A stretch of DNA of 64,000 nucleotides. It comes from an uncultured Candidatus Saccharibacteria bacterium. GTDB taxonomy: Bacteria > Patescibacteriota > Saccharimonadia > UBA4664 > CAZOQX01. Within the stretch, counting starts at the first letter, position 1. The number at the start of each line of letters is the position of its first letter. The stretch is from assembly GCA_964582465.1 (NCBI GenBank), contig CAZOQX010000001.1, positions 89,214-153,213 on the forward strand, written 5' to 3'. The translations under genes and the position numbers were made by a program. Below, piece after piece: positions 6,353 through 30,687 of this stretch. The notes under the pieces are model-generated. The model saw only the letters and a list, made by a program, of their open reading frames with translations, did not search any database and was not told the origin of the DNA.

Positions 6353-6427
<75 letters not shown>

Positions 6428-12080: not shown

Positions 12081-12968
12081 ATGAGCAAGGGCGTTGCCAG
12101 TCCGTTTTACACCCATGTTCAAGAATTTCGGCGCAGGCTATTCTGGACAGCTTTAGTTTTTCTGGGAGGCGCTGGAGCTGGCTATTTCTTTCGTTTACCA
12201 CTGACTAAGGTACTAAACCAGCCGATTGCTCAGCCACTTTTTTATACTTCTCCGAGCGGCGGGTTTGATTTCTACGTGAAGATTAGTTTGGCGGTTGGGT
12301 TGATGGCTGCAATCCCGGCAATTCTGTATCATCTTGTCCGTTTTATCGACCCGGCTTTTGAACGGAAAATCCATGGCCGACATCTAAGCTTGCTTGTCTT
12401 GCTCTCGTTTACGTTGATGCTAGCCGGCATGGCGTTCGCTTGGTTTGTGGTGTTACCAATGAGTTTGCACTTCTTTTCGAGCTATAACAGCCACTTTTTA
12501 AATCCACTCATCTCGGGTACGGAGTACCTCGCCTTTATTATCAACATGTTGGTAACATTTGCTCTCATTTTCCAGCTGCCCCTGCTGCTGCTGTCCGTCA
12601 ATTGGATTACCCCGATCAAGCCGCGCAAATTATTGAAGTTCCAACGCTACGTGATCGTGGGCAGCCTAATTATTGCCGTCATTTTGCCCTTTACCTACGA
12701 CCCAATTACCCAATTTGTGATTGCGCTGCCGATCATCGGTCTCTATGAATTCTCGGTGCTATTGATTTGGATGGTCAACCGCAGGCCGAAGTATAACTTT
12801 GACGCCTTCCCGAATTATCTACCACAGGACAATCTTAAGCTGGCTGGCCCAGAGCCGGCTACGGTGTTCGTCGATTTGCCTACGCTTGCCCCACCTGCGA
12901 AGATATCCCACCCTGTGCCCTCAAGGGTGCTTGACCTCAGGTCACCACAGCGTAATTACGCCGCTTAA
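12081..12968 (+). CDS. tatC: Twin-arginine translocase subunit TatC
   Basis: 295 aa, 6 TM helices. Conserved N-terminal region HVQEFRRRLFW. Confidence 0.9.
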   Translation: MSKGVASPFYTHVQEFRRRLFWTALVFLGGAGAGYFFRLPLTKVLNQPIAQPLFYTSPSGGFDFYVKISLAVGLMAAIPAILYHLVRFIDPAFERKIHGRHLSLLVLLSFTLMLAGMAFAWFVVLPMSLHFFSSYNSHFLNPLISGTEYLAFIINMLVTFALIFQLPLLLLSVNWITPIKPRKLLKFQRYVIVGSLIIAVILPFTYDPITQFVIALPIIGLYEFSVLLIWMVNRRPKYNFDAFPNYLPQDNLKLAGPEPATVFVDLPTLAPPAKISHPVPSRVLDLRSPQRNYAA

Positions 12969-12973
12969 GCCCA

Positions 12974-15208
12974 TTAGCTAGCTCCCGTTCTAGCTGAGGC
13001 AACCGTGCGAGTGGCAGATAGCGATCGGGTAGTAGCGCTAGTGTGAGTCGTGGCTGAGGGACGCTTGGTAGTAAAGTCAAAGCCAGTGTTACCAGAAACA
13101 TTGGTACCATGGTAGGCCAAGACGGGTGTACGGGTACCGGTAACCGTGATGTCTTGGATGGAGTTATAACTCGATACCCAGGTGCCCGAGGAGCCGAGAG
13201 CGATGGTGGCAGCAGTACCACCAACATTAGATTTGATAGTCAAAACCTTAGTTGAGATCCCAACCGAAGTGAAAGACGTCTGAATGGTCTGAGTAACGTT
13301 CGGACTTAAGTTAATAGTTTTGGCACTTCCCCCGATAAGGAGGCGGTTATAGGTATTCGCTCCCGTGACTGTCAGGGTAGCCGTAGAGTTGGAATCATAT
13401 GTCACTGTACCAAAAGTGGTTCCGTTCGGCGCAAAAGTCATAGTTGCTACAGCTGATCCTGGAGATATCGTAAAAGTCGCTGAGCTAGCATTCACAGTAC
13501 CGCTCGTAACATTGACGATGCTAATGGCATCACGGTTACAGTTCAAAATGATATTCGAGCTTCCCAAGTTGAACGTTCCGCCCGTACAGGTAAACTGGCA
13601 GACAGTGACGGTTTTGCTGTTAGTATCGAAGGTTCCCGCCGAGGCGGTAACGGAAGAGGACGTCGCCCCAGAGGCGGGGGCAAAAGTCAGATTGTCTTGT
13701 AGAGTATAGGTTCCGCCGCCAGATGCCACCTGCGGCCGCCAGCCTAAACCCAAACGCATGCCGTTCGTGGTTAGAGTTTGGCTGCCCCTCCCCCGAAGCA
13801 CCCAGTTGATTACTGCAGCGTCTGCAGTCATGGCTCCTAGAGTTAAGTTGCCGTAAAAGGTGGAATCAAGGTTAGGCGCAAGAGTTGGATTATTAGCAAT
13901 AGCCGAGAAATTCACATGCCGACCTTTACGGGGCATGTCACCGGTGATCGTCCTTCCAGTTGAAGTAATCGAATTGGCGGTAAAGAACACATCGTCCTGC
14001 GCCAAAGGCACCGTTGCACCTGAGGCACCGCCATCTGAAGTTGACCATGAAGTAGTGTTACTCCAGTTACCGCCGGTCGTTGCTACCCAGTAACGATTGA
14101 CGCCGTTGCCGCCATTAGATGTACCGGCGTTAACAGTGAAAGTAATATTCGAATTGCCTAAAGCATCTCCGAGCGAAGTTCCCGTCCAGGCCGCGTTACC
14201 GGGCAGACCAGCACCCGTGATGTCTTGAAAGTCGGCGTTAGTCAGCGAAATGGCCCCAGCTGTAATCGTGGTTGCGGCTCCAAGGGTGTTAGCCTGCACG
14301 AGCAGTCTATTTGTCAGCGAGTTACCAGTAGCAGTAAAGGTGTTCGTGATAGTAACGGAGGAGTGACCCCATGATATTGAGTCAGTCTTGGCGGTCGTAC
14401 CCGTACGGGTAAGGTTTGTGTACGTTGGGTTAGTCGCGTTATTGTCGCCCATGGTCACTATGCCAGAGCCAGAAAAGATCACGGTCCCGTAAGTAACTGC
14501 GGTATTGCCCCCTCGAAAGGTGACGGCTGCCCCTGAGCAAGTAATCGTTGAACTCGCAGCATTGAGCGTCATCCCGCTTGAGTTCTGAGATTGCCATGAA
14601 GTACCGGCGCCTGTGATTGTGATAGCTGAATTTGTAATGGTCAAAGTCCTTGTATTGGTGTTATTCGAGTTAAAATTGCCCAACGAAAGTGTTTGGCCAT
14701 TGGTGTCGAGCGTACCTTGGGTCAGTGTGACAGTACCCGTTGAGTTAGTATTTAATGCACTCGTCAATTGGTAGCTTCCGGTCACGCTCCCCGACCCGAA
14801 GGTAACAGTATTGGGCATGGTCTTGCCCTTAGTGTCAACCACTTGGGGGGTAGCAGCGGTTGTCCTAAGCAAGACCTGGGCCGACTTATTGACCCCCAGT
14901 GTATAGGTCATGGCGTTAGAAAACTTCAGGATTACGTTACCAGTTCCCGCCGTGGCATCACCCATGTTAAGTAGGGTGGAATCACTATGGGTCAGAACGC
15001 CCCCGTAGTCACCCGTTCCAGAGGTACAGTCCAAGGAACGGCAAGCCGAGTTAATGTCTATTGTGACGTTGCCACTGCCTGTTTCGAAAATAACGTCATC
15101 AGCAGTCGTGGGTGGGCCAGACGAATCACCCCCAGCCGACGAGACGTTAGACCATGTACTAGCGGCACTCCAATTGCCACCAGCTGCTTTAGCGTAGAGC
15201 GTAGCCAT
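12974..15208 (-). CDS. Giant paralogous Thr/Ser/Gly/Asn-rich beta-helix-like surface/adhesin-like protein (744 aa), paralog 6 of 6
   Basis: N-terminal module MATLYAKAAGGNWSAASTWS...PPTTADDVIFETGSGNVTID. Repeated GTLDTNGQTxSxG and NxxNTRTLTxxNS motifs. Conserved C-terminal tail ...PVLAYHGT...TRTGAS. Start overlaps the upstream stop (TAATG). Confidence 0.8.
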   Translation of the reverse strand: MATLYAKAAGGNWSAASTWSNVSSAGGDSSGPPTTADDVIFETGSGNVTIDINSACRSLDCTSGTGDYGGVLTHSDSTLLNMGDATAGTGNVILKFSNAMTYTLGVNKSAQVLLRTTAATPQVVDTKGKTMPNTVTFGSGSVTGSYQLTSALNTNSTGTVTLTQGTLDTNGQTLSLGNFNSNNTNTRTLTITNSAITITGAGTSWQSQNSSGMTLNAASSTITCSGAAVTFRGGNTAVTYGTVIFSGSGIVTMGDNNATNPTYTNLTRTGTTAKTDSISWGHSSVTITNTFTATGNSLTNRLLVQANTLGAATTITAGAISLTNADFQDITGAGLPGNAAWTGTSLGDALGNSNITFTVNAGTSNGGNGVNRYWVATTGGNWSNTTSWSTSDGGASGATVPLAQDDVFFTANSITSTGRTITGDMPRKGRHVNFSAIANNPTLAPNLDSTFYGNLTLGAMTADAAVINWVLRGRGSQTLTTNGMRLGLGWRPQVASGGGTYTLQDNLTFAPASGATSSSVTASAGTFDTNSKTVTVCQFTCTGGTFNLGSSNIILNCNRDAISIVNVTSGTVNASSATFTISPGSAVATMTFAPNGTTFGTVTYDSNSTATLTVTGANTYNRLLIGGSAKTINLSPNVTQTIQTSFTSVGISTKVLTIKSNVGGTAATIALGSSGTWVSSYNSIQDITVTGTRTPVLAYHGTNVSGNTGFDFTTKRPSATTHTSATTRSLSATRTVASARTGAS

Positions 15209-18200
15209 CAGCTGGCCCCCGTTCTGGTAGAGGCTAAAGTTCTGGCGTTAGCGCGTGCCCTCGTGACTCCTATCACGCTGCGGGTTACGCTGTTCGGCCG
15301 AATGGCGGAGAAATTGAAGCCCGTGTTGCCCGAAACGTTAGTGCCACGATGAGCTGCCACGGGGATATTGCCAGTCACGGTGATATCGGTTAGAACATTA
15401 TTAGTTTGTGACCAAATACCGGTAGCACCGAGCGCAAATATAACGGGCGTGCCCGGAGTAGCGGAACTGATCGTAATGGGTGAACTAGATCGCCCGATTG
15501 TAGTCATGTACCCCGTAACTGTGAAGGTTTGACCGGCTTGAACGGAAATGGTGTTCACGTCTATAACCACATTCCTAAACGTCGGCGACTGGTTGAACGT
15601 AAACGCCGGTGTTGAGCGGCCTATGATGAGGTCGATATTAGTATAAACATTATTGCCCCAAGATAATTGATGCGGTGTGACTGCCGCCTTATCCCCGACG
15701 ACAATCTGTCCCGCTGATGGGCCGATAGTTGTAGCAGTAGCACTCAGGGTGTATGGCGTACCATTAACACCAATCCCCAACCCAGTGATGATAATTTTGC
15801 CATTATTAAAGGTCAAAACTTTGGTTTGTCCATTATTACCGTTAAAAAGCGGGGTAGTAAGAGCGAACCCATTTAAATTAAGTTCTCCCGTTCCCAAACT
15901 GTTTACGCCCGTTGCACTGGTGAGGGTCATATTATCCATTAATTTATAGCTACCTATGCCGGCTTGAATTTGGCAAGGGGGAGCAATAACGCCGCCTGTG
16001 GTGAGGGTTTGGATGCCTCCGCGTCCGTTATAAATAACTACGTTGTTGTACGTCCCATTCGTTGTTCCGGTCTGGTTCCAGTTGCCCCCAACTGTCACGG
16101 CACCACCGGCGTTGAAGCTTAGTGTGGGTCTATTTTTAACGGCCGAAAAATCAATATCTTTACCGATTCTTACTTGATCCACAGTGATGGTCATACTGGT
16201 TGAGCCGACTGATGCGGCGTTAATATTTACCGCGTCGTGGATTAAGGGGATACTGGCTCCACTTGACCCTCCCGATGAAGCCGACCACGAGTTAGTACTG
16301 GCCCAAGTAATGTTTGGATTTTTGACTGTCACTGTGGCGGCGTTCGTAGAGCTTTCGGTGAACGAGGCTGTACCGGCCGACTGCGTCGTAAAGTTGGCAT
16401 CAAAGGCTGTTGTCCCGGCAATACCGTTTAAAACTACGACTCGGTAAATGTTACCCGTTGCCCAGTTGGAAGTACCGCCGCCGTTACCGATTTCCAGTAG
16501 CTGTGTGCCATCAAACAAGCCCTCAATCGTGGTCGATATGTTTGCGCCTAGCTGCGTCCAGACACTCGGAACGCTGGCGGAATCAGCGGCGGTGAAGAAC
16601 TGCACCGTGCCGGTAGTGCTGTCTCTGGTTGCCCGTACCCACATAGTTGCTCCATTAGTAATACCATTTACCACCGTTGAAGTGGCAGTGCGGAGGGTTG
16701 AACCGTTGGCGCTAGTTCTAAGATTGAAGTTACCCGCCGTATCAACGTAAAAAGCATAGGAGCAGGTTGAGGTCGAGGCGTACTTTGCTGCTAAGTACTG
16801 AACGGCCGCAGGATTGGTCCAGTTATCTAGAGCGACCCTCACCCTTATATCAATCGAGCCGGTAATGGATAGGGCAGCTGAGTCAGGGGCGGTGGCTTCA
16901 CCTGTAGTTAAGCCATTCAGTCTTAAGTATGATCCGTTAAGAGCAGCTGCCGAAACCATATACCTTGTAACTGGGGTGGTAAATTTAGTGCCGGCATTGC
17001 CGTTGCCGTCACCAGAGAGCCCCGTCACCGCCGATAGATCGAGAGGGGTTGCCGTAGTGCCCCCAACCACCCACGTTGAGGCCGAATTAGCCTTTTCAAG
17101 CATAGAACCATCGATATAAAACGTAGTTGCTAGGGTGCCATTGACCTTGACTCCTACCTGCAGGGCATTGCCGAGCGTCGGGTGGGGAGTATTGCCCATC
17201 GTTAAAGTAATTGAGTACCGATCCCACCCTCCGGTAGCAGTACCACTGGAAGTGTAGACGGCACCGTTAGCCCCAAAGTCTACTCCCGCCAAAGTGATGG
17301 GTGTGCCGGCCGGAGCCAGGATATATGTTGAATACGTGTAGGTTGTACCCGACGCGCCATCGGGCAGGCCTTGGCTTGCGCCCAACACATATTGCCAAGC
17401 GCCTTCAGTGGCTCTGGCCGTATCAGTTACAACCTGGAAAGAATAATTTCCTTCCCAAGCAAAGTTAGAGCTAAAGGCGCTACTGGCAGCAGCATTGGCA
17501 GTAGAGTTGTTAGAGTTGGCGCTCCAGCCGCCACTTGAGATTTCCACCCTAGAGCAATGGGGCCTTAAGATATTGTCGCCGGCATTAAAGTTACTCTCCT
17601 TATAAAAGAAAATGTCCTGAAAGTCGCAATTGGAGATCGACGGGGTGTTAGTGTAAATGATATATCTGGCGCTGCCGACCGTGCCGTTGACCACGCTAAT
17701 ACGGTTTGTCACGCTATTGCCCGCAAAAGTGATATTAGTACAAGTCACCGTGGTACTAAGGGCAAGACTGTCTAGTTTAGAGGCCGTGCCGGTGCGAGTG
17801 AGGGTAGATATGGTTGTGCCAGTCGCTGCCGATGTTAAAACTGCCTGCCCGGTCCCCGTGAAGTTGACTGTGCCATAGGCTTGGCCACTGCCCGAAAAAG
17901 TAGCGGCCGCCCCACTTATGGTGATGGTTGAAGAAGCCGCTGAACAAGTTAAACCGGTAATCGCTCCCATGTTAAACGAGGTACCAGTACCAGTGATGGT
18001 TACATTAGCCGTACCAAATACAATCGTTCGGTTGTTTGAGTTATTGGTATTGAATAGTCCCCAAGAAATTGTCTGATTATTTAAATCAAGGGTTCCACTG
18101 CTGAGAGTGGTGGTCGAAGTAGCGGTAGACGTCCAAGCCCGGGTTAGTTGCCACGAACCACCGCTTTGGAACTGAACGTTCCCGGTAGTCGTACCTACAC

Positions 18201-18573
18201 CAAAGTCAACCGTCTGTACCGTTGCCGATGTCGAAGAGAACCTCAAGAGAGAATTTGTGGCACTCACTGGCGTATATGTTCCCGTGAACTTCCAAGCCAC
18301 GTTGCCCGGGCCTGGCGTAGCGTCTCCAATGTCTAATATAAAGGTGGTGTTGTGTGTGAGTGTGCCGGCATAATTGCCTGTCCCAGCGGTGCAGTCTAGG
18401 CTGCGGCAAGCGCCCGAGGCGTCGATAGTTACATTCCCTGAGCCGGCTTCAAAGATAACATTGTCGGCAGACGTTGGAGGTCCGGCCGAATCACCTCCAC
18501 CAGAACCAGTCGCAGACCATGTACCGGCAGCAGACCAGTTACCACCAGCGGCTTTAGCGTAAAGCGTGGCCAT
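15208..18573 (-). CDS. Giant paralogous beta-helix-like protein (1121 aa) with CBM4/9-like and LamG-like inserts, paralog 5
   Basis: Same N- and C-terminal modules. Internal carbohydrate-binding-module-like segment (...FYIDGSMLEKA...). Concanavalin-A/LamG-like segment (YLRLNGLTTGEATAPDSAALSITGSIDIRVRVALDNWT). Confidence 0.8.
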   Translation of the reverse strand: MATLYAKAAGGNWSAAGTWSATGSGGGDSAGPPTSADNVIFEAGSGNVTIDASGACRSLDCTAGTGNYAGTLTHNTTFILDIGDATPGPGNVAWKFTGTYTPVSATNSLLRFSSTSATVQTVDFGVGTTTGNVQFQSGGSWQLTRAWTSTATSTTTLSSGTLDLNNQTISWGLFNTNNSNNRTIVFGTANVTITGTGTSFNMGAITGLTCSAASSTITISGAAATFSGSGQAYGTVNFTGTGQAVLTSAATGTTISTLTRTGTASKLDSLALSTTVTCTNITFAGNSVTNRISVVNGTVGSARYIIYTNTPSISNCDFQDIFFYKESNFNAGDNILRPHCSRVEISSGGWSANSNNSTANAAASSAFSSNFAWEGNYSFQVVTDTARATEGAWQYVLGASQGLPDGASGTTYTYSTYILAPAGTPITLAGVDFGANGAVYTSSGTATGGWDRYSITLTMGNTPHPTLGNALQVGVKVNGTLATTFYIDGSMLEKANSASTWVVGGTTATPLDLSAVTGLSGDGNGNAGTKFTTPVTRYMVSAAALNGSYLRLNGLTTGEATAPDSAALSITGSIDIRVRVALDNWTNPAAVQYLAAKYASTSTCSYAFYVDTAGNFNLRTSANGSTLRTATSTVVNGITNGATMWVRATRDSTTGTVQFFTAADSASVPSVWTQLGANISTTIEGLFDGTQLLEIGNGGGTSNWATGNIYRVVVLNGIAGTTAFDANFTTQSAGTASFTESSTNAATVTVKNPNITWASTNSWSASSGGSSGASIPLIHDAVNINAASVGSTSMTITVDQVRIGKDIDFSAVKNRPTLSFNAGGAVTVGGNWNQTGTTNGTYNNVVIYNGRGGIQTLTTGGVIAPPCQIQAGIGSYKLMDNMTLTSATGVNSLGTGELNLNGFALTTPLFNGNNGQTKVLTFNNGKIIITGLGIGVNGTPYTLSATATTIGPSAGQIVVGDKAAVTPHQLSWGNNVYTNIDLIIGRSTPAFTFNQSPTFRNVVIDVNTISVQAGQTFTVTGYMTTIGRSSSPITISSATPGTPVIFALGATGIWSQTNNVLTDITVTGNIPVAAHRGTNVSGNTGFNFSAIRPNSVTRSVIGVTRARANARTLASTRTGAS

Positions 18574-20684
18574 TAGCTGGCTCCCGTTCTAGTTGATGCG
18601 ACTGTGCGGGCGGCAGAGACTGCTCTGGTTGAGGCTGAACTGTGAGCAACGGCTGAGGGGCGCACAGTACTGGTGGTGATGCCGGTGGTGTTAGAGAGAG
18701 TGCCGTGGTAAGCCAAGACAGGCCTGCGGGTACCGGTGACAGTGATATCTGTGATGGTGTTGTAGGCGGATTGCCAAGTACCTGAACCGAGAGCAATGGT
18801 GGCGTTTGAACCTGGCGTCGATGAGTTAATAGTGATCACCTTGGTGGGGTCGGCGACGGCGGTCAAGGCTCCAGTGATGGTTTGGGTAATGGCACTAGTC
18901 AGGGTAACAGTTTTGGGCGACTGGATAGTCACGTTAGCAAATGTGTTGGCACCGGTGAAAGTAACGGCTCCGATGCCGCCGCCAGCAATCACGAGGTTGT
19001 TGTAGGTTTTGCCGGCACCAGAGAACTGCTTTGACGAAGCCGTGGTGTTGGTGGAGTTGATAGTCGATGTCTGAGCGTTGACTGTGATGTTCGTGCCAAC
19101 AACCCAAAACTGACTAGTGCCAGTCAAGTTCCAAGTCCCCGAGCCCATGTTGATCGTAGTCCCGTTTATGGCTCCGGACGTGGTTTCGCCCACAGCCGTC
19201 ACGTTATGGCCGTTAGCGTCAAACGTACCTGAAGTGATACTTATAGTATTGCCAGGAATGACAAGATCGTCTTGTAGCGCATAAGTACCACCCGGTGCGG
19301 CGACTATGAACGCTCTTGGCATGGTCTTTCCGGCGCTTGTCATGGTGTAGTTCGAGCGGCCGCTAAGTTGGACTGAAATGTTCCCGCCGAAGGTCATTGC
19401 CGATGATAGGGTCAAAGAGCCAAAGAAGAAGTTCGTAATGCCGCCGCCACCGGACATAGTGAAGGTTCTGGTAAAGTCGGTGAAGTTGACGTTCTTTCCA
19501 AGCCTCGGCATATCTCCCGTCAGGGTCCCAGCCGTGGTTGTGTTGATGATGACGTCATCCTGGGGCAGCGGCACGCGTGAAGTCCAGGCAGCGGCACTCG
19601 ACCAGTTATTGGTTCCGCCAACGTAGGTCTGCGTAACTGGGGCATCAAACGTGATGTTCGAATTTCCTTGAGCATCCCCTAGCGACGTACCCGTCCAAGC
19701 AGCATTGGCTGGCAGGCCAGCTCCGGTGATGTCCTGAAAGTCCACGTTTGTCAGCGAAATGGCAGCCGCGTTGAGGGTACGTGACGTACCGACAGTGTCG
19801 CTCTGGACAAGCAACCTGTTGGTGGTCGAGTTGCCAGTAATTGTCAGCGTACCTGTAACAGTCAGGGTGTTGATCCCGAGAATTAGACTGTCTGTCTTGA
19901 CGTTGGTACCCGTTCTCGTAAAGTTTGCGACTGTCAGGTTGTTATTCAAGAGCTTGGGCGTACCGGCCCCAGAGAACACGACTGATGCGCCATTCAAGTT
20001 TAGCGCACTGGTCACTGGCTGTATTGTATTGTTCCCCGAGTAGGTCCCCGTGAATGTGAGGATAGCCGTGTTGGCTGTGACCGTGAGATTATCGGATCGG
20101 ATTTGGTTGGAACCTGTGCCGTTAAGTGTGATCAGTGAGTTGCCAAGCGTCAGCGTGCGCGTGTTGGCATTGTTGGAGGCGAACTGTCCCCAAGAGCAAG
20201 TCTGACCATTAGTATCTAGTGTACCCAGAGTTAGCACAACTGTTTGGCCACCTGAGTTGAAGGTACCAGTGAGCTGCCATGAACCGCCCGCCCCGTTAAA
20301 ATTCACCGGGCCGCTAGATGTTTGGTTGGCAAAATCGACTGCTTGGACAGTTGAGGAGGTTGATAAGAAGGAAATAGTACCACCAGCTGTATATGTCATA
20401 CCTGCCACAAATTTCAGAGCAATGTTGGAAGCACCTGGGGTGGAATCGCCAATGGCTAGGGTGATACCTCCCGAAGCCATTGCCAGAATATGTGTAAACC
20501 CAGTGCAGTTAATTGAACGACAATTGGAGGCTACGTCGATAGTGCAGTTGCCGGGTGAAGAGGCAGTGAAAAACACATCGTCAGCTGAAGTCGGGACGGA
20601 GAAACCAGAGCTACCACCATCAGAATCTGACCATGATGCGGTCGAGCTCCAGTTGGTGCCGCTGCCGACAAAATAGCGCGCCAC
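18573..20684 (-). CDS. Giant paralogous beta-helix-like protein (703 aa), paralog 4
   Basis: N-terminus MARYFVGSGTNWSSTASWSDSDGGSSGFSVPTSADDVFFT is a variant of the NW-S module. Conserved TRTGAS tail. TAATG coupling at both ends. Confidence 0.8.
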   Translation of the reverse strand: MARYFVGSGTNWSSTASWSDSDGGSSGFSVPTSADDVFFTASSPGNCTIDVASNCRSINCTGFTHILAMASGGITLAIGDSTPGASNIALKFVAGMTYTAGGTISFLSTSSTVQAVDFANQTSSGPVNFNGAGGSWQLTGTFNSGGQTVVLTLGTLDTNGQTCSWGQFASNNANTRTLTLGNSLITLNGTGSNQIRSDNLTVTANTAILTFTGTYSGNNTIQPVTSALNLNGASVVFSGAGTPKLLNNNLTVANFTRTGTNVKTDSLILGINTLTVTGTLTITGNSTTNRLLVQSDTVGTSRTLNAAAISLTNVDFQDITGAGLPANAAWTGTSLGDAQGNSNITFDAPVTQTYVGGTNNWSSAAAWTSRVPLPQDDVIINTTTAGTLTGDMPRLGKNVNFTDFTRTFTMSGGGGITNFFFGSLTLSSAMTFGGNISVQLSGRSNYTMTSAGKTMPRAFIVAAPGGTYALQDDLVIPGNTISITSGTFDANGHNVTAVGETTSGAINGTTINMGSGTWNLTGTSQFWVVGTNITVNAQTSTINSTNTTASSKQFSGAGKTYNNLVIAGGGIGAVTFTGANTFANVTIQSPKTVTLTSAITQTITGALTAVADPTKVITINSSTPGSNATIALGSGTWQSAYNTITDITVTGTRRPVLAYHGTLSNTTGITTSTVRPSAVAHSSASTRAVSAARTVASTRTGAS

Positions 20685-22834
20685 TAGTTCGCCCCCGTTC
20701 TGGTTGAAGATAAGGTGCGGGTGGCAGAAGCAGATCTGGTGGTGGCGGAGGTGTGGTTAATAGCAGAAGGTCTAATCGTGCTCGATGTGATGCCCGAGGT
20801 GTTCGATAGCGTGCCGTGATAGGCCAAGACTGGTGTGCGGGTACCGGTGACGGTGATGTCAGTAATGGAATTGTAGCTAGAGCTCCAGGTGCCGGAAGTG
20901 CCAAGAGCGACGGTGGCGGCCGAGCCACCGGTGACAGCATTGACGGTAATGGGATTGGCGGGGGTGCCCAGTGTAACTATCGAGCCTGTGATCGTTTTGG
21001 TTTGACCAGACTTAAACTGCAGCGTCTTAGGACCACCCTGGATAAAGATATTGGCAATTGTTGGTGAGCTATCGAAGAATATGACCGCACCGGTACCACC
21101 GCCGGCAATATATATATTGCCATAGATTGCAGTACCCAGGCTAAGGGTTTTCGACGTGGCCGAAACATCCGACACATAAATGCTAGCTAAGGCTGCACTA
21201 ACCGTAATACCAGAAGTAGCTACATTCCAGATTGTGCCATTACCGGTAATCATCCATTTGCCCGTGCCCATATTGAGAGTGCGGGTGTCAGTGGTAGTTG
21301 AAGTGAAACTCCCGCACCTCACATTAAACCCATTAGCATCGAAGGTGCCGTTACTTAAAGTTATCCCGCCCGACGCGCCAGTATCAATCGAGTAGTTATC
21401 CTGAAGGGTATAACTGCCGCCTGGCGCCAGGAAATTCCAAGCTTCGGGGAAACGCTTACCGCCCGATGTGATAGTCTGGGCGCCGCGACCCCGAAAGTTG
21501 CTGGAAAAGTTGCCGCTAATGCTGAAATTATTGGTCGCTATCAGGTTACCGAAGATATTGGCACCAATCGTAAAGCTAATGGTGCCAGTAAAGCCCGTGA
21601 AATTGATATCCTTCCCCCAACGCGGCATGTCAGCTGTGATGGTACCGGACGCGCTACCGTTGATGATCACATTATCTTGAGGTAATGGCACGCGGCTAGT
21701 CCAGTTACCGGCTGTCGACCAGCTGCCACCGGCGCCAGAACGTGTTTGCGTAGCCGGTGTATCGAATGTGATGTTGGAATTGCCTTGACCATCTCCCAGC
21801 GAGGTTCCGGTCCAGGCGGCATTCCCGGGCAACCCCGCCCCGGTAGTATCTATAAAATCGAGGTTTGTCAGCGAAATGGCGGCGGCGGTAAGCGTACGAC
21901 TAGTCCCAACGGTGCTAGATTGAACCAATAGACGGTTGGTAGTGGAATTACCAGCCAGGGTCAGGGTATTGGTGACGGTCAGGTTGGATAGTATGTTCAA
22001 AACTTCGGTTTTGGCTGCGATTGAAGACGTAAAAGTGAAGTTAGCACAGGTGGTTGTGCCAGCATTGGTAGAACCAAGCGACATGGTTTGAACCACCGTA
22101 GGGGCATATACAATGTTATTATAAGTCGCCACACCACCGGCAAATGCACCGGTGCTGCCGGTTAAAGTGATGGTTGAGCCGCCCGCATTCAGAGTAAGAC
22201 CAGTAGTAGTGGCTGTAGTCCAGGACGTGCCTGTACCAGTAATCGTTATGTTCGAGTTGCCAAGCGTTAAACTTCTAGTGTTTGAGTTATTGGAGTTAAA
22301 TAGTCCCCACGAGCAGGTTTGCCCATTGGTATCGAGAGTACCTTGGTTGTGCGTAACTGTCCCGCCAGTGCCCATATTGAGTGCTCCCGTCAGCTGGTAA
22401 TTACCGGTTGTATTACCGGACCCAAAAGTGACAATGTTGGACATAGTTTTTCCCTTACAATCAACCGCCTGCTGAGTGGCTGAGGTTGATCTAAGTAAGA
22501 GTTGGGCTGACTTATTCGTGCCCAGTGTATACGTCATACCGGTGGAGAATTTAAATGCGACGTTTCCGGCCCCGGCTGTGCCATCTCCAACATTAAGAAG
22601 AGTTGAGTCATTATGGGTTAGGATTCCACCGTAGTCGCCTGTGCCAGCAGTGCAGTCGACCGAGCGGCAGACGGAGTTAACGTCAATCGTGACGTTCCCA
22701 CTGCCCGTTTCGAAAATGACATCATCAGCTGCCGTCGGTGGCCCAGAGGAATCGCCGCCTGCAGATGAGACATTGCTCCAAGTACCGGCTGCACTCCAGT
22801 TACCACCAACCGCTTTGGCGTAGAGAGTGGCCAT
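20684..22834 (-). CDS. Giant paralogous beta-helix-like protein (716 aa), paralog 3
   Basis: N-terminus MATLYAKAVGGNWSAAGTWS... C-terminal tail ...TRTGAN. Stop/start overlaps. Confidence 0.8.
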   Translation of the reverse strand: MATLYAKAVGGNWSAAGTWSNVSSAGGDSSGPPTAADDVIFETGSGNVTIDVNSVCRSVDCTAGTGDYGGILTHNDSTLLNVGDGTAGAGNVAFKFSTGMTYTLGTNKSAQLLLRSTSATQQAVDCKGKTMSNIVTFGSGNTTGNYQLTGALNMGTGGTVTHNQGTLDTNGQTCSWGLFNSNNSNTRSLTLGNSNITITGTGTSWTTATTTGLTLNAGGSTITLTGSTGAFAGGVATYNNIVYAPTVVQTMSLGSTNAGTTTCANFTFTSSIAAKTEVLNILSNLTVTNTLTLAGNSTTNRLLVQSSTVGTSRTLTAAAISLTNLDFIDTTGAGLPGNAAWTGTSLGDGQGNSNITFDTPATQTRSGAGGSWSTAGNWTSRVPLPQDNVIINGSASGTITADMPRWGKDINFTGFTGTISFTIGANIFGNLIATNNFSISGNFSSNFRGRGAQTITSGGKRFPEAWNFLAPGGSYTLQDNYSIDTGASGGITLSNGTFDANGFNVRCGSFTSTTTDTRTLNMGTGKWMITGNGTIWNVATSGITVSAALASIYVSDVSATSKTLSLGTAIYGNIYIAGGGTGAVIFFDSSPTIANIFIQGGPKTLQFKSGQTKTITGSIVTLGTPANPITVNAVTGGSAATVALGTSGTWSSSYNSITDITVTGTRTPVLAYHGTLSNTSGITSSTIRPSAINHTSATTRSASATRTLSSTRTGAN

Positions 22835-25800
22835 CAGCTGGCCCCCGTTCTAGTTGAGGATAAAGTGCGGGGGGCTGAAAGAGATCGGGTAGAAGCAGAA
22901 CTATGTGGAGTGGCAGAGGGTCGTTTGGTAGTAAAGTCAAAGCCGGTGTTGCCGGAAACATTAGTACCGTGATAAGCGAGGACGGGGGTACGGGTACCGG
23001 TCACAGTGATGTCTTGAATTGAGTTATATGAGGATACCCAGGTACCGGAGGTGCCGAGGGCGATGGTGGCGGGGGTACCCGAAACTGTCGAGTAAATATG
23101 GGTGCGTTGTGAATCCAGCCCCCAACGATTAGCCAGATAATATTCTATTGAACTTAAGTTTGGTATGGTTAAGGCCTGGTTGTAGATTAAAACCTCAAAA
23201 ATATCGCCTACAAAAAATTCAGAATCGTTATTTCTGGCCCCAATTCTGCCAGAGGTAAAGGTAGCGGTGTTATTGACCATTGCGACTGGGTTTGTTACTT
23301 GAGCCCCATCTTTTCTTGAGAAGCCAGAGTCTGCTGCCCAGTAAGAAGTAAAAATATGGGGGTCAGTGTCCAGAGGAGTATAGCGATCGGTACGAGTTAC
23401 TCCGTCATCCCCAGCCCGTGTTTGACCAAATTGCGTCCCATTGGTGATTGCAAACAGATATATATTTGATACACCTCCTAATCCAATAATATCTTTGTTG
23501 CTCGCTGTATTTGTTGCCCTTGCCACTACAAACACAACACAAGGAACATCATTGCCAGCCATCGCAGCCACTAAACCTGCGGGCATAACCATATCATCAT
23601 TCACCCCATCAAAGCGCATTGAGGCCATCCCATTCATAACATTAGTCGTGTAGGTTGGTCTGGCTGTGCCAGATTGGGTAACATCAAAGCCATTACCCGA
23701 TTGATCTTGCCAGGTTGATACGGGGTCACCATTTGACCCTGAGTATTGATCGGCTTTAAGCCATAGTTTGCATCCTGCAATTGAGGTTGGAACTATGATT
23801 GCAGGGTTGGTTGAGCCCGGGCCAATGGTTGTGATCGATTGATTAACCGTCGTAACCTGCGATACAGGAAAGATCAAAGTCTTTTGTCCTTGTCCACTGA
23901 CAATAATCTTATTGAACGTGTTCGCCCCGGTAAAAGACAGTGCTTGGGGAGTATCTTGGGCATATCTCAGGATATTGTAGCTCCAGCCACCGCCCGCAAA
24001 GGTCTTATCTACTATGCCCTGACCCGTCAGGCTGATGGTAGAGGTTCCCGAATTAAGTGAAACCATTGTTGTCGCAGCAGTCCAGACCGTACCTGTACTG
24101 TTCACTGTCCATATACCCGCCCCCATGGTGATGGCTGTCTGTCCCTGAAAAGTAATAGTCGTCGCTTTAACGTTATGATTGTTGGCTGAGAAAGTTGTCC
24201 CGACGGCAATCACTAAATTACGGTTTATCCCCATGTCAAAATCATCTTGGAGGGTATAGTTGCCGCCTGGAGCTGCAATTGTGGTAGTGGCTGTCCCTGC
24301 CATCGCGTGACCCGCCATCGTTATGGTATAAGTTCCTCTGCCTTGGAGTTGAAGATTTATTCCCGTCCCAAAGGCGGTTCCAACACCAGCCCCCAAGGTA
24401 AGACTTCCATATAAGATAGGGGCACCAGTCAGGCTTAGGGTTGGAGAGCCCGTTGCCCCGCTAAAATCAAGACTCTTGCCCAATCGAGGCATATCCATGG
24501 TCACGCTTCGCCCCGCCACAAAAGCATTATTTACAACTACGTTATCTTGAGGGAGCGGGACTCTAGTTGTCCAGCCATGAGTGCTCCAGGTGAAAGAGGC
24601 CGTCCCGGTGGCAGTTTGCGTAGCGGCAGGAGTAAAGGTCATCCCCCCATTGCCGCCAGCATCTCCCGACTTGCCTGTTATGGCCGAGAGATCAACTGGG
24701 GTGGTGGCCGTTCCTCCAACTACCCAAGTGGAGGCCGAGGAGTTTTGTTCAAACATCATCCCATCCACATAGAAGGTGGCGGCAACAGCGGCGTTGGTTG
24801 ATACGCCAAGCATTATGGCATTGCCTAGTGTTGGCGAAGGATTATGGCCTGACGTGAAGGAGACGGATAATCTATCCCATGTTCCTAAACCAGTTGCCGT
24901 ACCAGTTCCGGTGTAAACCGTTCCGTTATTACAGAAGTCACAAACAGCCACTCTGAGTGGGGTTCCGGCTGCTGCCTGAACGTAGGCTGAGAAGGTATAG
25001 GCGGTGTCAGACTGAGCATCGACTAGACCTTGGGCTTTGCCCATCACGTATTCCCACATCCCCTGCAAGCTCACACTTCCTGAAGTTGTCAGCTTCATAC
25101 AGTAAGTCCCTTGCCAAGGAGTAACTTCGGTACTTACCGCCCCGGTTAAGGCGATGTTAGAGGTTGAGTTATTAGAATTGAAGCTCCAGCTGCCGATAGA
25201 AAGAGTCTCAAAAGAGGAGTCGGCTACTCTCATGATGTTGCCTCCTGCCGTATAAGCCGAGTTTTTAAACATTAGAATGTCGGCAAAATCGACGTTGGAA
25301 GTAGTCAAGGTAGTACCGTAAGCAAGATATCGCATTGTCCCCACAGTGTTGCTTTGCACAATCAGGCGATTAGTAACGGAGTTGCCAGCCAGCGTCAGCG
25401 TACCGCTCACGTATATACCAGAGCCACCCAGCGCGACTGACCCCGTTAGAGTCGCTGGCCCATTGACGGTTAGATTCGCCAAGATAAACGATGCGGTACC
25501 CGCCAACGTTATAGCCGAGCCATTGAGCGTAAATGATGCGCCGTTCATATTGAGGGCATTGGAAACATTAAAACCACCAGCGGAAAGTGTCCACGTTGAT
25601 GTGTTTGCCGAGACTGTCAGTAAAGTAGCATTAACCAAAAACGCGGAATTGGACGAGGAGGTGAGGGTTATGGCACTAGCTCCGAGAGTAAGTACTGCCG
25701 TAGTAGAGAGGCTATGAGCGAAAGTGTTCCACGAACAGGTTTGCCCGTTGGTATCTAAAGTTCCAGCGCTCAAAGTAAGGTTTCGACATGTCACACCGGA

Positions 25801-26238
25801 TGAGAATTGCCAACTGGCACCAGCGCCATTAAATGTAACATCAGTTGATGCCCCTAAATTTTTAGCCACGAAATCAACGATCTGTTGGGTCGTAGAGGTA
25901 GATATAAAACTGATAGTAAGAGCCCCCACTGCCGTATAGGTCATACCTGCCGAGAACTTTAGGGCTACGTTCCCTGCGCCAGCCGTTGCATCCCCAATGC
26001 TCAAGACAAAGGCGTTATGGGTCAACGTTCCACCGTAGTTACCAGTTCCCGAAGTACAATCTAAAGAACGGCAGGCGGAAGTAGCATCGATCGTGACGTT
26101 GCCGCTTCCCAATTCAAAGATCACATTATCTGAGGCGGTTGGCGGCCCCGCACTGTCTGCCCCCCCAGATCCTGTTGCGGACCACGTACCCGCCGCAGAC
26201 CAGTTACCACCCGCGGCTTTGGCATAAAGTGTAGCCAT
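22834..26238 (-). CDS. Giant paralogous beta-helix-like protein (1134 aa) with CBM4/9-like and LamG-like lectin inserts, paralog 2
   Basis: CBM-like segment (...ATFYVDGMMFEQNSSASTWVVGG). LamG-like jelly-roll segment (LWLKADQYSGSNGDPVSTWQDQSGNGFDVTQ...RFDGVNDDM...). Conserved N- and C-terminal modules. Confidence 0.8.
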   Translation of the reverse strand: MATLYAKAAGGNWSAAGTWSATGSGGADSAGPPTASDNVIFELGSGNVTIDATSACRSLDCTSGTGNYGGTLTHNAFVLSIGDATAGAGNVALKFSAGMTYTAVGALTISFISTSTTQQIVDFVAKNLGASTDVTFNGAGASWQFSSGVTCRNLTLSAGTLDTNGQTCSWNTFAHSLSTTAVLTLGASAITLTSSSNSAFLVNATLLTVSANTSTWTLSAGGFNVSNALNMNGASFTLNGSAITLAGTASFILANLTVNGPATLTGSVALGGSGIYVSGTLTLAGNSVTNRLIVQSNTVGTMRYLAYGTTLTTSNVDFADILMFKNSAYTAGGNIMRVADSSFETLSIGSWSFNSNNSTSNIALTGAVSTEVTPWQGTYCMKLTTSGSVSLQGMWEYVMGKAQGLVDAQSDTAYTFSAYVQAAAGTPLRVAVCDFCNNGTVYTGTGTATGLGTWDRLSVSFTSGHNPSPTLGNAIMLGVSTNAAVAATFYVDGMMFEQNSSASTWVVGGTATTPVDLSAITGKSGDAGGNGGMTFTPAATQTATGTASFTWSTHGWTTRVPLPQDNVVVNNAFVAGRSVTMDMPRLGKSLDFSGATGSPTLSLTGAPILYGSLTLGAGVGTAFGTGINLQLQGRGTYTITMAGHAMAGTATTTIAAPGGNYTLQDDFDMGINRNLVIAVGTTFSANNHNVKATTITFQGQTAITMGAGIWTVNSTGTVWTAATTMVSLNSGTSTISLTGQGIVDKTFAGGGWSYNILRYAQDTPQALSFTGANTFNKIIVSGQGQKTLIFPVSQVTTVNQSITTIGPGSTNPAIIVPTSIAGCKLWLKADQYSGSNGDPVSTWQDQSGNGFDVTQSGTARPTYTTNVMNGMASMRFDGVNDDMVMPAGLVAAMAGNDVPCVVFVVARATNTASNKDIIGLGGVSNIYLFAITNGTQFGQTRAGDDGVTRTDRYTPLDTDPHIFTSYWAADSGFSRKDGAQVTNPVAMVNNTATFTSGRIGARNNDSEFFVGDIFEVLIYNQALTIPNLSSIEYYLANRWGLDSQRTHIYSTVSGTPATIALGTSGTWVSSYNSIQDITVTGTRTPVLAYHGTNVSGNTGFDFTTKRPSATPHSSASTRSLSAPRTLSSTRTGAS

Positions 26239-29000
26239 TAGCTAGCTCCTGTTCTAGTTGAGGCTACCGTGCGGGTAACGGCCGTAGACCTTGTTGTGGC
26301 TGGGGTGTGTGGTATAGCGGATGGCCGGACGGTACTTGATGTAATACCAGTGGCGTTAGAAAGAGTGCCGTGGTAGGCCAACACGGGGATGCGAGTACCG
26401 GTGACAGTACAATCGGTAATGGAGTTGAAAGCCGAGGACCAAGTGCCAGAAGTGCCGAGACCGACAGTGTATCCCTGTCCGGGAGTGCTCGAATTGAAGG
26501 TAATAGCCTTTGTTGAAGTCCCTAAACTTATGATGTTTGATACGTTAGTAGTGCTTCCTGCGAATGTAGTAACAGTTGTTCCTGCTGGGATATAGATATT
26601 GTGAAAATTTCTACCGGGTGCACCCGTAGAAGTTCCAAAATTGATAACACCAGTTCCTCCAGCAAATCTCAAGTCGTATAAGGTAAATGCTCCCAAGACA
26701 AGAGTCTTCTGAGTAGAGGTCGTGTTGGCAATGATGATTTCTGACGTTGATGGGTTAACCGTAAGATTAGTAACCCCAGAAACGGTAAAAACAGTTCCCG
26801 TTGCCGTTAGTATCAGCTTACCCGATCCCATATTAAAGACTGTTCCTGCTACTGTAGGGGATGAGGAGAAGCCACCACAAGTAAAGTTATGGTTGTTCAT
26901 ACTAAAAGTTCCTGAGTTAAATCCAGAAGCAGAGGCAGAGTTTGAGACAAAGTCATCCTGAAGGGTATACGAACCTGCTAGGGCGTTTATTGACAGTACA
27001 CCCGTCCAAGTTACCCCACTTGAAGTGATTGTGTGCGCACCACGGCCTCTTAATATCTGGCTTTGGCCACCCGAAAAAGTCATGCCCGATCTTAAGGTGA
27101 TACTCCCATAATAAGAGGGGCCGCCCGATACAACAGCGGCGCTTGACAAGGTAAACGCCACAGTTGACCCCGAGCAATCAACATTGGCGCCAATATGGTT
27201 CATTTCGATTGTGACAGTTTTACTGGCCGTTCCCATATTGATAAAGACGTTATCTTGAGGCAGCGGAATACGAGAAGTCCACGAAGTTACAGCTGACCAG
27301 TTGGCGCTGGTTTTATTTATAGATACGGTAGCGGCATTGGCTGAGGATTCAGTAAACGAGAGGGCGTCTACAGATTGAGCCGTAAAGTCAGCATTAAAAA
27401 CGGGTGTCCCCGCCCCTGATCCTAAGGCTGAGCCATAGATTTTAGCATTGTAAACATTCCCTTTCAAAAGAGCATTCGTGCCGGCTGTATTAGAGCCAAC
27501 CTCCAAAATGCTAGTAGTATCTGCGATAGTAGCTACCCCCACCGTTGTAATTGTCGTCCCAAGCTGAGTCCATGTAGAGCCGTCATCTGACATATAAAAA
27601 TTACAGACTCTGTGTCCAGCACCGTCGTTTAACGTTAGCGAGCCTCGTAACCATTTAGTGGAGCCATCTGCCAGGCCAGTCGCGACACTTGATATATTAT
27701 TTAGAAAGTTAGTCCCATCGGCTGATGTTCTCATTTGGAGTGTCCCCGCAACCAGAACTTCCAAGCCATAAGCGAACTGACCAGAAACTGCTACCTTAGC
27801 AACGGTCTCGTTATTTGCTGCCGGTGTCCAGTCGTCCAGTGATACTTTGACGTCTATTGTAATATCAGTTGTTATCGATAGAGCTGCTGAGTCGGGAGCC
27901 GAAACATAACCACCCGACACACCATTTAACCTCAAGCTTGTACCCGTTAGTTGGGCTTGCCCATAGTATTGGGTAACTGGCGAAGGGAAAGTGATGCCGG
28001 AATTTCCTAGGCAATCTCCGAGCAAAGTTCCGGTTAAACTGCCCGCAGAACCAGTGATGATAATATCCATAAAATCAACATACTGGTGGGCACCGTGTGA
28101 GCCATTGACGGTAATGGTTGTAGTTTGGCCAGCAGTACCAGAAAAAACAAGAACTCGGTTTATGGCAGAGTTGCCACTTAATGTAAACGTGCCCGTGACG
28201 GTAATTGCCCCTGTAATTTGAAGACCAAACCCTTTATTGACCGGGCCAGTGTAGGTGAAATTTGTGATGGTTGGGCCAGATGAGACGGTTTGGGTGGCAT
28301 TGGCTAATCCGAAAGAGACAGTGCCATAAGTCATACCCGCCCCGCCCGAAAAGACATTGGAGCCATTTCCGTTTAAGTTAATGGTTGAAGAGGCGGCAGA
28401 CAGCGTAAGGTTTCCTACATTTGTCATCGACCAACTGCCTGAGCTGTTGTTTAGCAAAATCGTGGAAGTTCCGACAGTGATTGACCTGACGTCAGTTGTG
28501 GTTGACGTGAAGGACTTTAAGGTCATATTGAAGTTGGCGGTGTTGAAGGTTCCTTTGTTGACGTTAAAGGTCGTCGAAGAGATGAAGGCATCCTGGAGGG
28601 TAACCGTTCCGCCATTGGTTGACCCTGTAAAACCGATGGCGATAGGACAAGACCAGGTTTTTGTAGCCGTAGTTAAGGCACAGGTTCCGCCCGATGCTGC
28701 AATAGTAATAGTACCTGCATAGGTCATCGTCCCCATCGTGGAAGCCAAAGTTAAATCACCCCGTACTGTTAGATTGAAGGTCCCCGCGAATATGCCGGTA
28801 TAACCGGTGCCACCAGCAAAGGTGAGACTGGCACAGTCGGCGGCCTGGTTGACGGTTACGGTGCCGCCACCGGAAGAGCTATCAAAAGTTACAGGGTCAG
28901 TCGAAACTGGCACCGAAAAACCGCTAGAACCACCAGACGAATCCGACCAGTGAGCCGTATCGCTCCAGTTACCGGTACCGCCAACCCAAAAGCGCGCCAT
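26238..29000 (-). CDS. Giant paralogous beta-helix-like protein (920 aa) with LamG-like insert, paralog 1
   Basis: N-terminus MARFWVGGTGNWSDTAHWSDSSGGSSGFSVPVSTDPVTF. LamG-like segment LRLNGVSGGYVSAPDSAALSITTDITIDVKVSLDDWT. C-terminal TRTGAS tail. Confidence 0.8.
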   Translation of the reverse strand: MARFWVGGTGNWSDTAHWSDSSGGSSGFSVPVSTDPVTFDSSSGGGTVTVNQAADCASLTFAGGTGYTGIFAGTFNLTVRGDLTLASTMGTMTYAGTITIAASGGTCALTTATKTWSCPIAIGFTGSTNGGTVTLQDAFISSTTFNVNKGTFNTANFNMTLKSFTSTTTDVRSITVGTSTILLNNSSGSWSMTNVGNLTLSAASSTINLNGNGSNVFSGGAGMTYGTVSFGLANATQTVSSGPTITNFTYTGPVNKGFGLQITGAITVTGTFTLSGNSAINRVLVFSGTAGQTTTITVNGSHGAHQYVDFMDIIITGSAGSLTGTLLGDCLGNSGITFPSPVTQYYGQAQLTGTSLRLNGVSGGYVSAPDSAALSITTDITIDVKVSLDDWTPAANNETVAKVAVSGQFAYGLEVLVAGTLQMRTSADGTNFLNNISSVATGLADGSTKWLRGSLTLNDGAGHRVCNFYMSDDGSTWTQLGTTITTVGVATIADTTSILEVGSNTAGTNALLKGNVYNAKIYGSALGSGAGTPVFNADFTAQSVDALSFTESSANAATVSINKTSANWSAVTSWTSRIPLPQDNVFINMGTASKTVTIEMNHIGANVDCSGSTVAFTLSSAAVVSGGPSYYGSITLRSGMTFSGGQSQILRGRGAHTITSSGVTWTGVLSINALAGSYTLQDDFVSNSASASGFNSGTFSMNNHNFTCGGFSSSPTVAGTVFNMGSGKLILTATGTVFTVSGVTNLTVNPSTSEIIIANTTSTQKTLVLGAFTLYDLRFAGGTGVINFGTSTGAPGRNFHNIYIPAGTTVTTFAGSTTNVSNIISLGTSTKAITFNSSTPGQGYTVGLGTSGTWSSAFNSITDCTVTGTRIPVLAYHGTLSNATGITSSTVRPSAIPHTPATTRSTAVTRTVASTRTGAS

Positions 29001-29049
29001 TAGCTGGCTCCTGCTCTGGTGTTAGGTGACACCAAGGTAACCACGAGGC

Positions 29050-30630: not shown

Positions 30631-30657
30631 TAAACCCCACGCTTAATGCTTACGTTA

Positions 30658-30687
30658 AGTATAAAAGTTTTTATGCTTATAATGCAA
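30658..30687 (-). promoter_or_regulatory. Candidate promoter for the minus-strand giant-protein operon (TTGCAT-N18-TATACT read on the minus strand)
   Basis: Hexamers read by eye in the divergent intergenic region between 30630 and lepA. Confidence 0.35.

Follow-up and report, generated by a model that had tools for sequence, protein, structure and literature searches.

Why should six proteins that have drifted far apart along most of their length end in the same tail? The question is raised by a 64,000-nucleotide stretch of DNA from an uncultured Candidatus Saccharibacteria bacterium (contig CAZOQX010000001.1, positions 89,214 to 153,213; hereafter the window, with positions counted from its first letter), in which open reading frame (ORF) calls place six minus-strand paralogs head-to-tail between 12974 and 29000. 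In the direction of transcription these are par1 (26238-29000, 920 aa), par2 (22834-26238, 1134 aa), par3 (20684-22834, 716 aa), par4 (18573-20684, 703 aa, with a GTG start), par5 (15208-18573, 1121 aa) and par6 (12974-15208, 744 aa). The head gene of the operon (29050-30630, minus strand) encodes a tail-fibre-like protein of 526 aa whose shaft is rich in repeats and whose C-terminal domain (residues about 434-525) is a jelly-roll. We found the conserved C-terminus of the paralogs to be a composite of three layers: the final rungs of a beta-helix, a basic peptide with an arginine at every sixth position, and a set of codons that also serves translation of the next gene. The tail is most likely a binding handle for the fibre-like protein encoded upstream, a role to which we would give about an even chance.

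All six paralogs end in ...ITDITVTGTRxPVLAYHGT, about 30 further residues, and RTGAS (RTGAN in the third). An 80-aa alignment of the six tails contained 28 invariant columns at a mean column identity of 75%, whereas the central parts of the proteins share only 23-45% identity, which bears out the common C-terminus proposed in an earlier note on this DNA. A profile of the tail found no match in the window outside the six paralogs. The same note had treated the last 55 residues as a single module, and this view holds for only part of their length. The first ~25 of these residues, layer 1, are the final beta-helix rungs, confidently modelled by AlphaFold2 (AF2) for par4; they correspond to a family-wide block (...DYLSIQDSTATGGAxWYAGANSTNVSGNTGWIF) after which the members of the family diverge in a short extension. 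Layer 2 is the part of the claim that stood: an array-specific, basic stretch of ~25 residues without any acidic residue, which is the sole module common to all six paralogs. The tail has a net charge of +4 to +6 and an isoelectric point (pI) of 12, whereas the protein bodies are neutral or acidic.

The unit of layer 2 has the form x-R-T/S-hydrophobic-small-small, with arginine (once histidine) at every sixth position, and we refer to it as an Arg-hexad. Basic residues follow one another at intervals of 6,6,6,6 in the four paralogs that were scored; the intervals of par1 are the same, and par5 is longer by one residue in the alignment. A regular expression for at least three R-[VTIS]-x4 units matched par1, par2, par3 and par6, while par4 and par5 fit the pattern by eye. 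Including the stop codon, the Arg-hexad tails lie on the minus strand at 26238-26330 in par1 (VRPSAIPHTPATTRSTAVTRTVASTRTGAS), 22834-22926 in par2 (KRPSATPHSSASTRSLSAPRTLSSTRTGAS), 20684-20776 in par3 (IRPSAINHTSATTRSASATRTLSSTRTGAN), 18573-18665 in par4 (VRPSAVAHSSASTRAVSAARTVASTRTGAS), 15208-15300 in par5 (RPNSVTRSVIGVTRARANARTLASTRTGAS, the most divergent copy) and 12974-13066 in par6 (KRPSATTHTSATTRSLSATRTVASARTGAS). The AF2 model of par4 loses confidence after about residue 672: residues 674-703, the final 30 (layers 2 and 3), had a predicted local distance difference test score (pLDDT) of 39-58, so the tail is predicted to be disordered.

Layer 2 is held by selection at the protein level. 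Its synonymous codon identity between copies was 0.33-0.37, against 0.32 in the gene body, and the invariant tail arginines are written with up to five different codons, CGN/AGR switches included. Since synonymous sites are thus as scrambled as in the gene body, the amino acids themselves must have been maintained, rather than copied recently from one gene to another.

Layer 3 is of a different kind. It consists of the final five codons, AGA ACG GGR GCN AGC, and the stop (TRR-TG), which contain the Shine-Dalgarno (SD) sequence and the overlapping start of the next gene. The 15-nt motif GGRGCNARCTRRTGG occurs in exactly seven copies in the window, with 0 expected: at the five internal junctions, upstream of par1 (28997-29011) and downstream of par6 (12971-12985). 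The internal junctions, all on the minus strand, lie at 26235-26249 (par1/par2; GGAGCTAGCTAATGG, with the SD-like site in the last codons and a 1-nt stop/start overlap), 22831-22845 (par2/par3; GGGGCCAGCTGATGG), 20681-20695 (par3/par4; GGGGCGAACTAGTGG, with the GTG start), 18570-18584 (par4/par5; GGAGCCAGCTAATGG) and 15205-15219 (par5/par6; again GGGGCCAGCTGATGG, inside a 22-nt stretch identical to the par2/par3 junction). At every internal junction the stop and start share one base, as TAATG, TGATG or TAGTG. An embedded GGAG had been described 9 nt ahead of the next start; we found GGAG at four of the seven sites and GGGG at the other three, separated from the start codon by 7 nt. Counted from the start codon, this core occupies -12 to -8, where other genes of the window also have their SD-like sites.

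The last five codons are under selection at the nucleotide level for the SD sequence of the next gene. Arginine is AGA in all six tails (25% elsewhere in these genes), threonine ACG in five of six (20% elsewhere) and glycine GGR in all six (35% elsewhere), while GGY is used for every other invariant glycine of the tail. Synonymous codon identity rises to 0.58-0.64 in these codons, compared to 0.32 in the gene body. This bias and the raised identity support the proposal that the terminal codons double as a ribosome-binding site (RBS). With a stop/start overlap and an SD site that lies within the upstream ORF, inside the range of 5-13 nt ahead of the start expected for coupling, the junctions have the make-up of overlapping genes, and we infer that neighbouring paralogs are translationally coupled in vivo. 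Textbook coupling of this kind, with the SD sequence inside the upstream gene, is found at UGAUG overlaps of the trpE/trpD type, which the junctions resemble in their 1-nt overlap, their GGAG/GGGG at -12 to -8 and their codon bias. Overlapping gene pairs are common elsewhere in the window, and the RBS overlap as such is routine operon biology.

Unlike ordinary coupled pairs, however, the junction was here duplicated together with the gene. In the 5' leader of par1, where no paralog lies upstream, there is a relic of a tail end (29000-29026, minus strand; CCT AAC ACC AGA GCA GGA GCC AGC TAA, which reads PNTRAGAS and a stop) that now provides the ribosome-binding region of par1. At the other end of the array, the junction motif after par6 (12971-12985, minus strand) supplies an ATG (within an orphan ATGG) that opens a 10-codon ORF only; this copy is a leftover of the repeat unit, orphaned from any paralog. 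Because of the relic at one end and the orphan start at the other, the junction must belong to the unit that was duplicated, which accounts for the seven copies of the motif and for the fixation of the last five residues (RTGAS) in every paralog. The junction string before par1 had been reported one base away from where we located it, and the suggestion that the junction spread with duplication is supported by these two remnants. The junction RNA gave a weak consensus fold (-10.4 kcal/mol) with 0 compensatory pairs, internal promoters or terminators within the array were not above shuffled expectation, and no slippery heptamer for a programmed frameshift or readthrough joining the paralogs was present at the junction. 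Some phage homologs have two units fused in one ORF, while the units of the window are separated by tail and stop; two complete beta-helix units in one ORF were seen in L023 (6572-10225), L033 (2678-6043) and L088 (5935-8010; ...GNTGWIFG-VNKYWVGGTGNWS...).

Recombination among the paralogs, which the earlier note had raised, has to be divided into past and recent exchange. The nearest neighbour of par2 is par5 at the N-terminus (83%) and par6 at the C-terminus (79-81%), and that of par3 is par6 at the N-terminus (86%) and par4 in the middle (84%). As nearest neighbours switch along the genes, segments were exchanged in the past. The longest exact repeat between paralogs is 22 nt, the stretch shared by the par2/par3 and par5/par6 junctions, and because of this short length and the scrambled synonymous sites of the tail, we saw no sign of recent or ongoing conversion and rejected recent gene conversion as an account of the array.

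Which proteins carry this tail? Searches of the paralogs and the tail against Pfam, NCBIfam and PDB sequences gave no match, whereas a full-length search recovered more than 1,327 homologs, one of them named, from Candidatus Saccharimonadales; taken with general features of the genome, this homolog makes a Saccharimonadales (Patescibacteria) chromosome probable. Each paralog consists of two beta-helix units, with extra inserted domains in par1, par2 and par5. The AF2 model of par4 (703 aa, 60 homologs) was all-beta with a pLDDT of 89.5, and the chain enters the fold with its first beta-strand at residue 2, too early for an N-terminal signal to precede it. Foldseek found only a generic beta-helix resemblance in the PDB (E > 0.2), and in BFVD strong full-length matches to proteins of uncultured Caudovirales phages, such as the beta-helix protein A0A6J5T8W4 ('Parallel beta-helix repeat'; E 7e-24, TM 0.75, 27% identity). 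Phage proteins of this kind, which are uncharacterised and encoded beside tail-fibre genes, share with the paralogs the full-length predicted fold, the GxWxxxxxW start, the C-terminal rungs and the position directly 3' of a fibre-like gene. Within the family, the alignment conserves W12 and W18 of this start and N666-G668-W669-F671 of the C-terminal rungs; the rungs of the window proteins are a divergent version, with no paralog reaching E<1e-5 against the consensus C-terminal profile.

Gene neighbourhoods point to the same phage affinity. The homolog P0027, which aligns to par4 at 42% identity over 92% coverage (E 3e-108), has its gene flanked by SU10_portal on one side and SU10_adaptor on the other, and the gene of homolog P0012 lies within a siphophage structural module. 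Relatives of the C-terminal module occurred on 349 IMG/VR viral contigs, and in the two that were checked (L016 and L039) the family gene is surrounded by terminase, portal, major head (capsid) and tail-fibre genes. The family gene lies directly 3' of a fibre-like gene at L001, L002, L006, L007, L016 and L039, in phages and Saccharibacteria-type chromosomes alike. Homology, fold and gene position therefore all place the paralogs in a phage-associated family of two-unit beta-helix proteins that has no Pfam or NCBIfam model, and together they show the phage affinity of this family. The window departs from the phage members in holding a six-gene chromosomal array, around which about 20 kb is free of phage genes, and also in the tail: where its six proteins have the 30-residue Arg-hexad tail, the family members of phages and most of the cellular ones finish with a PP-linker of 10-15 residues followed by NFFLLF, FLQMF or LLMGVG. 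Most members (80 IMG/VR loci, L009-L088, together with L002 and L007) were seen to have TAPP, 4-8 small residues and then a hydrophobic or aromatic end, the ends being NFFLLF, FLQMF or LLMGVG, and such short hydrophobic tails were present on 48 of the 50 family genes located 3' of 'cluster-0' tail-fibre genes.

Several further features of this family were observed. The inserted domains of par2 (residues 822-1056, about 23071-23775), par5 (residues 546-749, about 16327-16938) and the middle of par1 had matches only in PHROGs (phrog_10356 'virion structural protein' and phrog_5313), and they have the apparent look of LamG/ConA-type lectin folds. In the Saccharibacteria-type loci L002 (3705-9997) and L007 (3774-16000), beta-helix genes alternate with genes for proteins that start with (M/V)xRLPxPGxDxGxWGxxLNxFL, an N-terminus that we presume to resemble that of actinophage tail fibres, and LamG (PF13385) genes are also present in both regions.

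The link between the tail and the head gene emerged from homologs. Among the 120 closest homologs, related tails were found only on P0120 (20 bits) and, marginally, on P0012 (7 bits), and the genes of both follow one for a ~500-aa protein with a conserved C-terminal domain that is homologous to the head gene. At L001 (232-5281), P0120 and its partner were seen 3' of rhamnose-type sugar-nucleotide and glycosyltransferase genes, which hints that these Ser/Thr-rich proteins may be glycosylated. The family of the head gene matched the partners of L001 and L006 distantly (hhalign probability 97.9%, E 4.5e-13, 78 columns), and 2,542 homologs share the repeats of the head gene. In the AF2 model of the head protein (overall pLDDT 58.7), the usable part is the C-terminal domain (pLDDT 75-90), a beta-sandwich for which the Foldseek matches in BFVD include phage tail-fibre proteins, among others.

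We searched viral and metagenome contigs for the signature of this partner family, ...HNKATAP...STGI.WAISTT.... In four independent phage contigs, L089 (6440-7246), L090 (6612-7277), L092 (6975-9260) and L105 (253-930), the gene directly 3' of the HNKATAP jelly-roll partner begins, after the initial Met, with 3-4 Arg-hexads; the four starts include MGIATGRISATGRVSASDRVLATGR, MARVAVANRVAVANRVVAS, MGRVTSVNRVAKSGRVSASGRVSAS and MPRVAVSGRVPMAGRVVGM. The proteins of L089 and L092 have in common with the par2 insert the phrog_10356 'virion structural protein' domain. It was also observed that the L090 and L105 proteins end in ...GRVTP and ...GRVPA. Over the ORFs of all fetched loci (0.58 M residues), the regular expression for at least three R-[VTIS]-x4 units gave 10 matches, compared to about 1.4 in shuffled sequences, and 8 of the 10 adjoin a partner gene. 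The window has a like arrangement: three or more units stand at the end of the paralogs, and the first gene of the operon belongs, as a distant member, to the partner family. These sequence comparisons show a co-occurrence of the Arg-hexad motif with the HNKATAP partner family. We found no earlier description of the Arg-hexad peptide in the profile libraries and literature searched, and what is left as new in this locus is this terminal module, together with its tie to a single partner family.

In our best explanation, the operon follows the phage two-gene plan, a fibre-like protein and then a beta-helix protein, with the beta-helix gene multiplied six-fold inside a chromosome. Layer 2 would be a docking peptide by which each paralog is fixed to the jelly-roll domain at the C-terminus of the head protein, so that one base could carry any of the six divergent beta-helix bodies, and layer 3 would provide termination-reinitiation coupling along the operon. 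We favor a docking handle because the link to the partner family is the one regularity that explains the conservation of the tail on all six paralogs. Docking between the tails and the head protein is, at this stage, a prediction from sequence. Phages with several receptor-binding proteins offer a parallel: the sets of CBA120 (TSP1-4), G7C (gp63.1/gp66) and TP901-1 (BppU-BppL) combine divergent bodies with a conserved docking module. Like the CBA120-type sets, as generally known, the window has beta-helix paralogs with divergent middles, a conserved terminal segment and an adaptor or fibre gene alongside, and the hexads of the phage loci are N-terminal, where CBA120-type docking modules usually lie. 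By contrast, the known docking modules are folded N-terminal domains, whereas the segment in the window is a 30-residue basic C-terminal repeat, and no sequence or structural similarity of the window proteins to CBA120-type docking modules was found in library, PDB and Foldseek searches.

Several observations weigh against a docking role. The head protein is a distant member of the partner family, with a pairwise E of about 1e-3 and one 78-column profile-profile match. The association of motif and partner comes from few loci (about 7), which are possibly linked phylogenetically, and at the partner loci L091, L093-L096, L100, L101, L104, L106 and L109 the next gene has no hexad. The tail of P0012 is only marginally similar, and the motif is N-terminal in the phages but C-terminal in the window. 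Furthermore, a basic tail of low complexity could equally bind polyanions, and docking does not account for the route by which signal-less proteins, made from a chromosomal operon away from any phage genes, would get to where they act.

Binding to polyanions without any protein partner is the rival that fares best, although we consider it unlikely. Here the tail would anchor the proteins to teichoic-acid-like wall polymers, phosphorylated glycans or nucleic acid, as could be expected from its high positive charge, the absence of acidic residues, a pI of 12 next to neutral or acidic bodies, the strict 6-residue spacing of the arginines and the predicted disorder. However, an anchor of this kind does not explain why the motif tracks one neighbour family in unrelated phage contigs, nor does it account for the conservation of the non-basic positions, T/S after R and then V/L.

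It is also quite unlikely that the hexads are an oligomerisation element by which, much as trimeric phage fibres do at their ends, three chains would intertwine in a short triple beta-helix or beta-spiral, for self-assembly and not for docking. Such a role would be in line with a repeat length of six residues in which polar and hydrophobic positions alternate, with the terminal position on fibre-type proteins and with a low pLDDT in the monomer, as for a segment that folds only in the oligomer. Yet there are only 4-5 repeats, most family members do without hexads and have unrelated short tails instead, and oligomerisation does not predict co-variation with the neighbouring gene.

A further, decidedly improbable extension of the docking idea is that a Saccharibacteria-type episymbiont has domesticated a phage receptor-binding module and that the tail-docked paralogs hitchhike with the head protein through the twin-arginine translocation (Tat) pathway, to act as variable surface adhesins for host attachment. 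The head protein would have gained a Tat-type signal-anchor, unique among the listed homologs, and the folded, signal-less paralogs would bind the fibre in the cytoplasm via their tails and cross the membrane through the adjoining TatAC. The head-protein N-terminus reads SRKDFLAKL followed by GLGALGIIGVAGLV, to be compared with the Tat motif S/T-R-R-x-F-L-K, and the Tat-like segment (residues 21-43; 30502-30570, minus strand; SRKDFLAKLGLGALGIIGVAGLV) has RK in place of RR and then a hydrophobic helix. This N-terminal extension was absent from the other 119 listed homologs of the head gene, a few of which start with ordinary signal-peptide-like hydrophobic stretches, and NCBIfam TatB_1 matched the head protein weakly (E 0.007, far below the cut-off). 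On the plus strand, tatA (11904-12074, 56 aa; PF02416, E 1.8e-13) and tatC (12081-12968; PF00902, E 2.4e-45) converge on the array, and the tatC stop lies 5 nt from that of par6, which we take as context only. Because of the Tat-like extension and the adjoining tatA and tatC, co-export of tail-docked paralogs with the head protein can be allowed for. Co-export of signal-less subunits is known for Tat hitchhikers such as hydrogenase HybO/HybC and DmsA/DmsB, with which the window shares a signal-less set encoded together with one Tat-like partner and adjoining tatA-tatC; it differs from them in having RK and not RR, no evident cleavage site and a very large cargo. In the relatives examined, tatAC was not seen adjacent to such arrays. 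A 121-aa ORF with a GTG start (30630-30995, minus strand), which overlaps the head-gene start by 1 nt and the lepA start on the other strand, is probably spurious.

That the tail itself is a C-terminal secretion or sorting signal, of the type I secretion system (T1SS), type IX secretion system C-terminal domain (T9SS CTD) or sortase kind, which exports the signal-less paralogs and marks a secretome, had been the proposal of the earlier note. The tail is indeed terminal, conserved and predicted to be disordered, the proteins have no N-terminal signal, with their first beta-strand at residue 2, and, judging from the N-terminal Sec-type signals on four or five members from elsewhere, the family can be extracellular. 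Like T9SS CTD, LPXTG, PEP-CTERM-type and T1SS signals, the tail is C-terminal on proteins without an N-terminal signal; unlike them, it has no sorting motif, hydrophobic helix or folded CTD, and no cognate machinery was found in the window. A 36-aa tail profile recovered only the array's own members from 1.84 billion representative proteins, and none elsewhere among the proteins of the assembly, which does not agree with a secretome marker. Scans of genome, metagenome and viral contigs found no true relative of the tail. Extra matches of the profile (P0123 and P0124) were rejected as translated tandem repeats, and the single match of the contig scans (L005) as out-of-frame. A word-indexed search with the 80-aa tail alignment was empty even for the window's own proteins and was judged insensitive on low-complexity sequence.

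No Pfam or NCBIfam sorting-signal model matched the paralogs or the tail (E<0.1). A Por_Secre_tail-type match, as for a T9SS CTD, was lacking, the tail being 30 residues long, predicted disordered and without the beta-sandwich of such a domain; the tails likewise contain no LPXTG-like motif or hydrophobic stretch, and no NCBIfam sorting domain was matched. T1SS signals have no sequence consensus, so that one of this kind could be missed by sequence comparison. The window contained neither RTX repeats nor a T1SS-type or other dedicated transporter, its one ABC system (669-2640) being of the ABC-2 type. The arrays of relatives at L002 and L007 lack the tail and other members of the family have other tails, and this is what the note itself had said would speak against a secretion signal. 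Moreover, the motif is also found N-terminally on phage virion proteins and on a phage-encoded homolog, for which cellular export is not needed, and the absence of an N-terminal signal can be understood because the family is of the phage virion type. Hence a sorting role of the tail is not supported, we regard it as very unlikely, and it can be set aside.

Finally, that the conservation of the tail has no meaning at the protein level, and results from gene conversion or from overlap with the initiation region of the next gene, is extremely improbable, for although nucleotide-level constraint does act on the last five codons and the mosaic relationships attest to past exchange, synonymous identity upstream of those codons stays near that of the gene body, the arginine codons differ between copies with no exact stretch above 22 nt, an RBS needs about 15 nt and not 90, and a conserved RNA structure is unsupported, given 0 compensatory pairs.

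The surroundings of the array are those of an ordinary chromosome, with genes for FtsH, MurJ, TatA/TatC, LepA, HrcA, DnaK/J, ComEC, RuvABC, PilMNO and DnaN. A prophage was looked for and none was found in the window, the flanks being housekeeping genes. The window also holds a tRNA-Ile gene with a UAU anticodon (2706-2780) and two tRNA-Met genes (6157-6231 and 6353-6427) about 120 nt apart. From about 37735 to 43139 there is a run of ORFs without a Pfam match, with a tRNA-Lys gene (41416-41491) inside; GC content reaches up to 0.587 in the 38-40 and 42-44 kb bins (0.516 between them), against about 0.52 around, and the run could be a small foreign island.

Should the tail prove to be a docking handle, different receptor-binding bodies could be placed on one base by means of a compact, portable mount, and it would be useful for reading the host-range modules of phages in metagenomes. 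It would also account for how six diverged beta-helix proteins could act as one system. With no prophage nearby, a putative membrane segment on the head gene and tatAC adjoining the array, the locus raises the question of whether ultra-small episymbionts may reuse phage adhesion hardware on their own surface.

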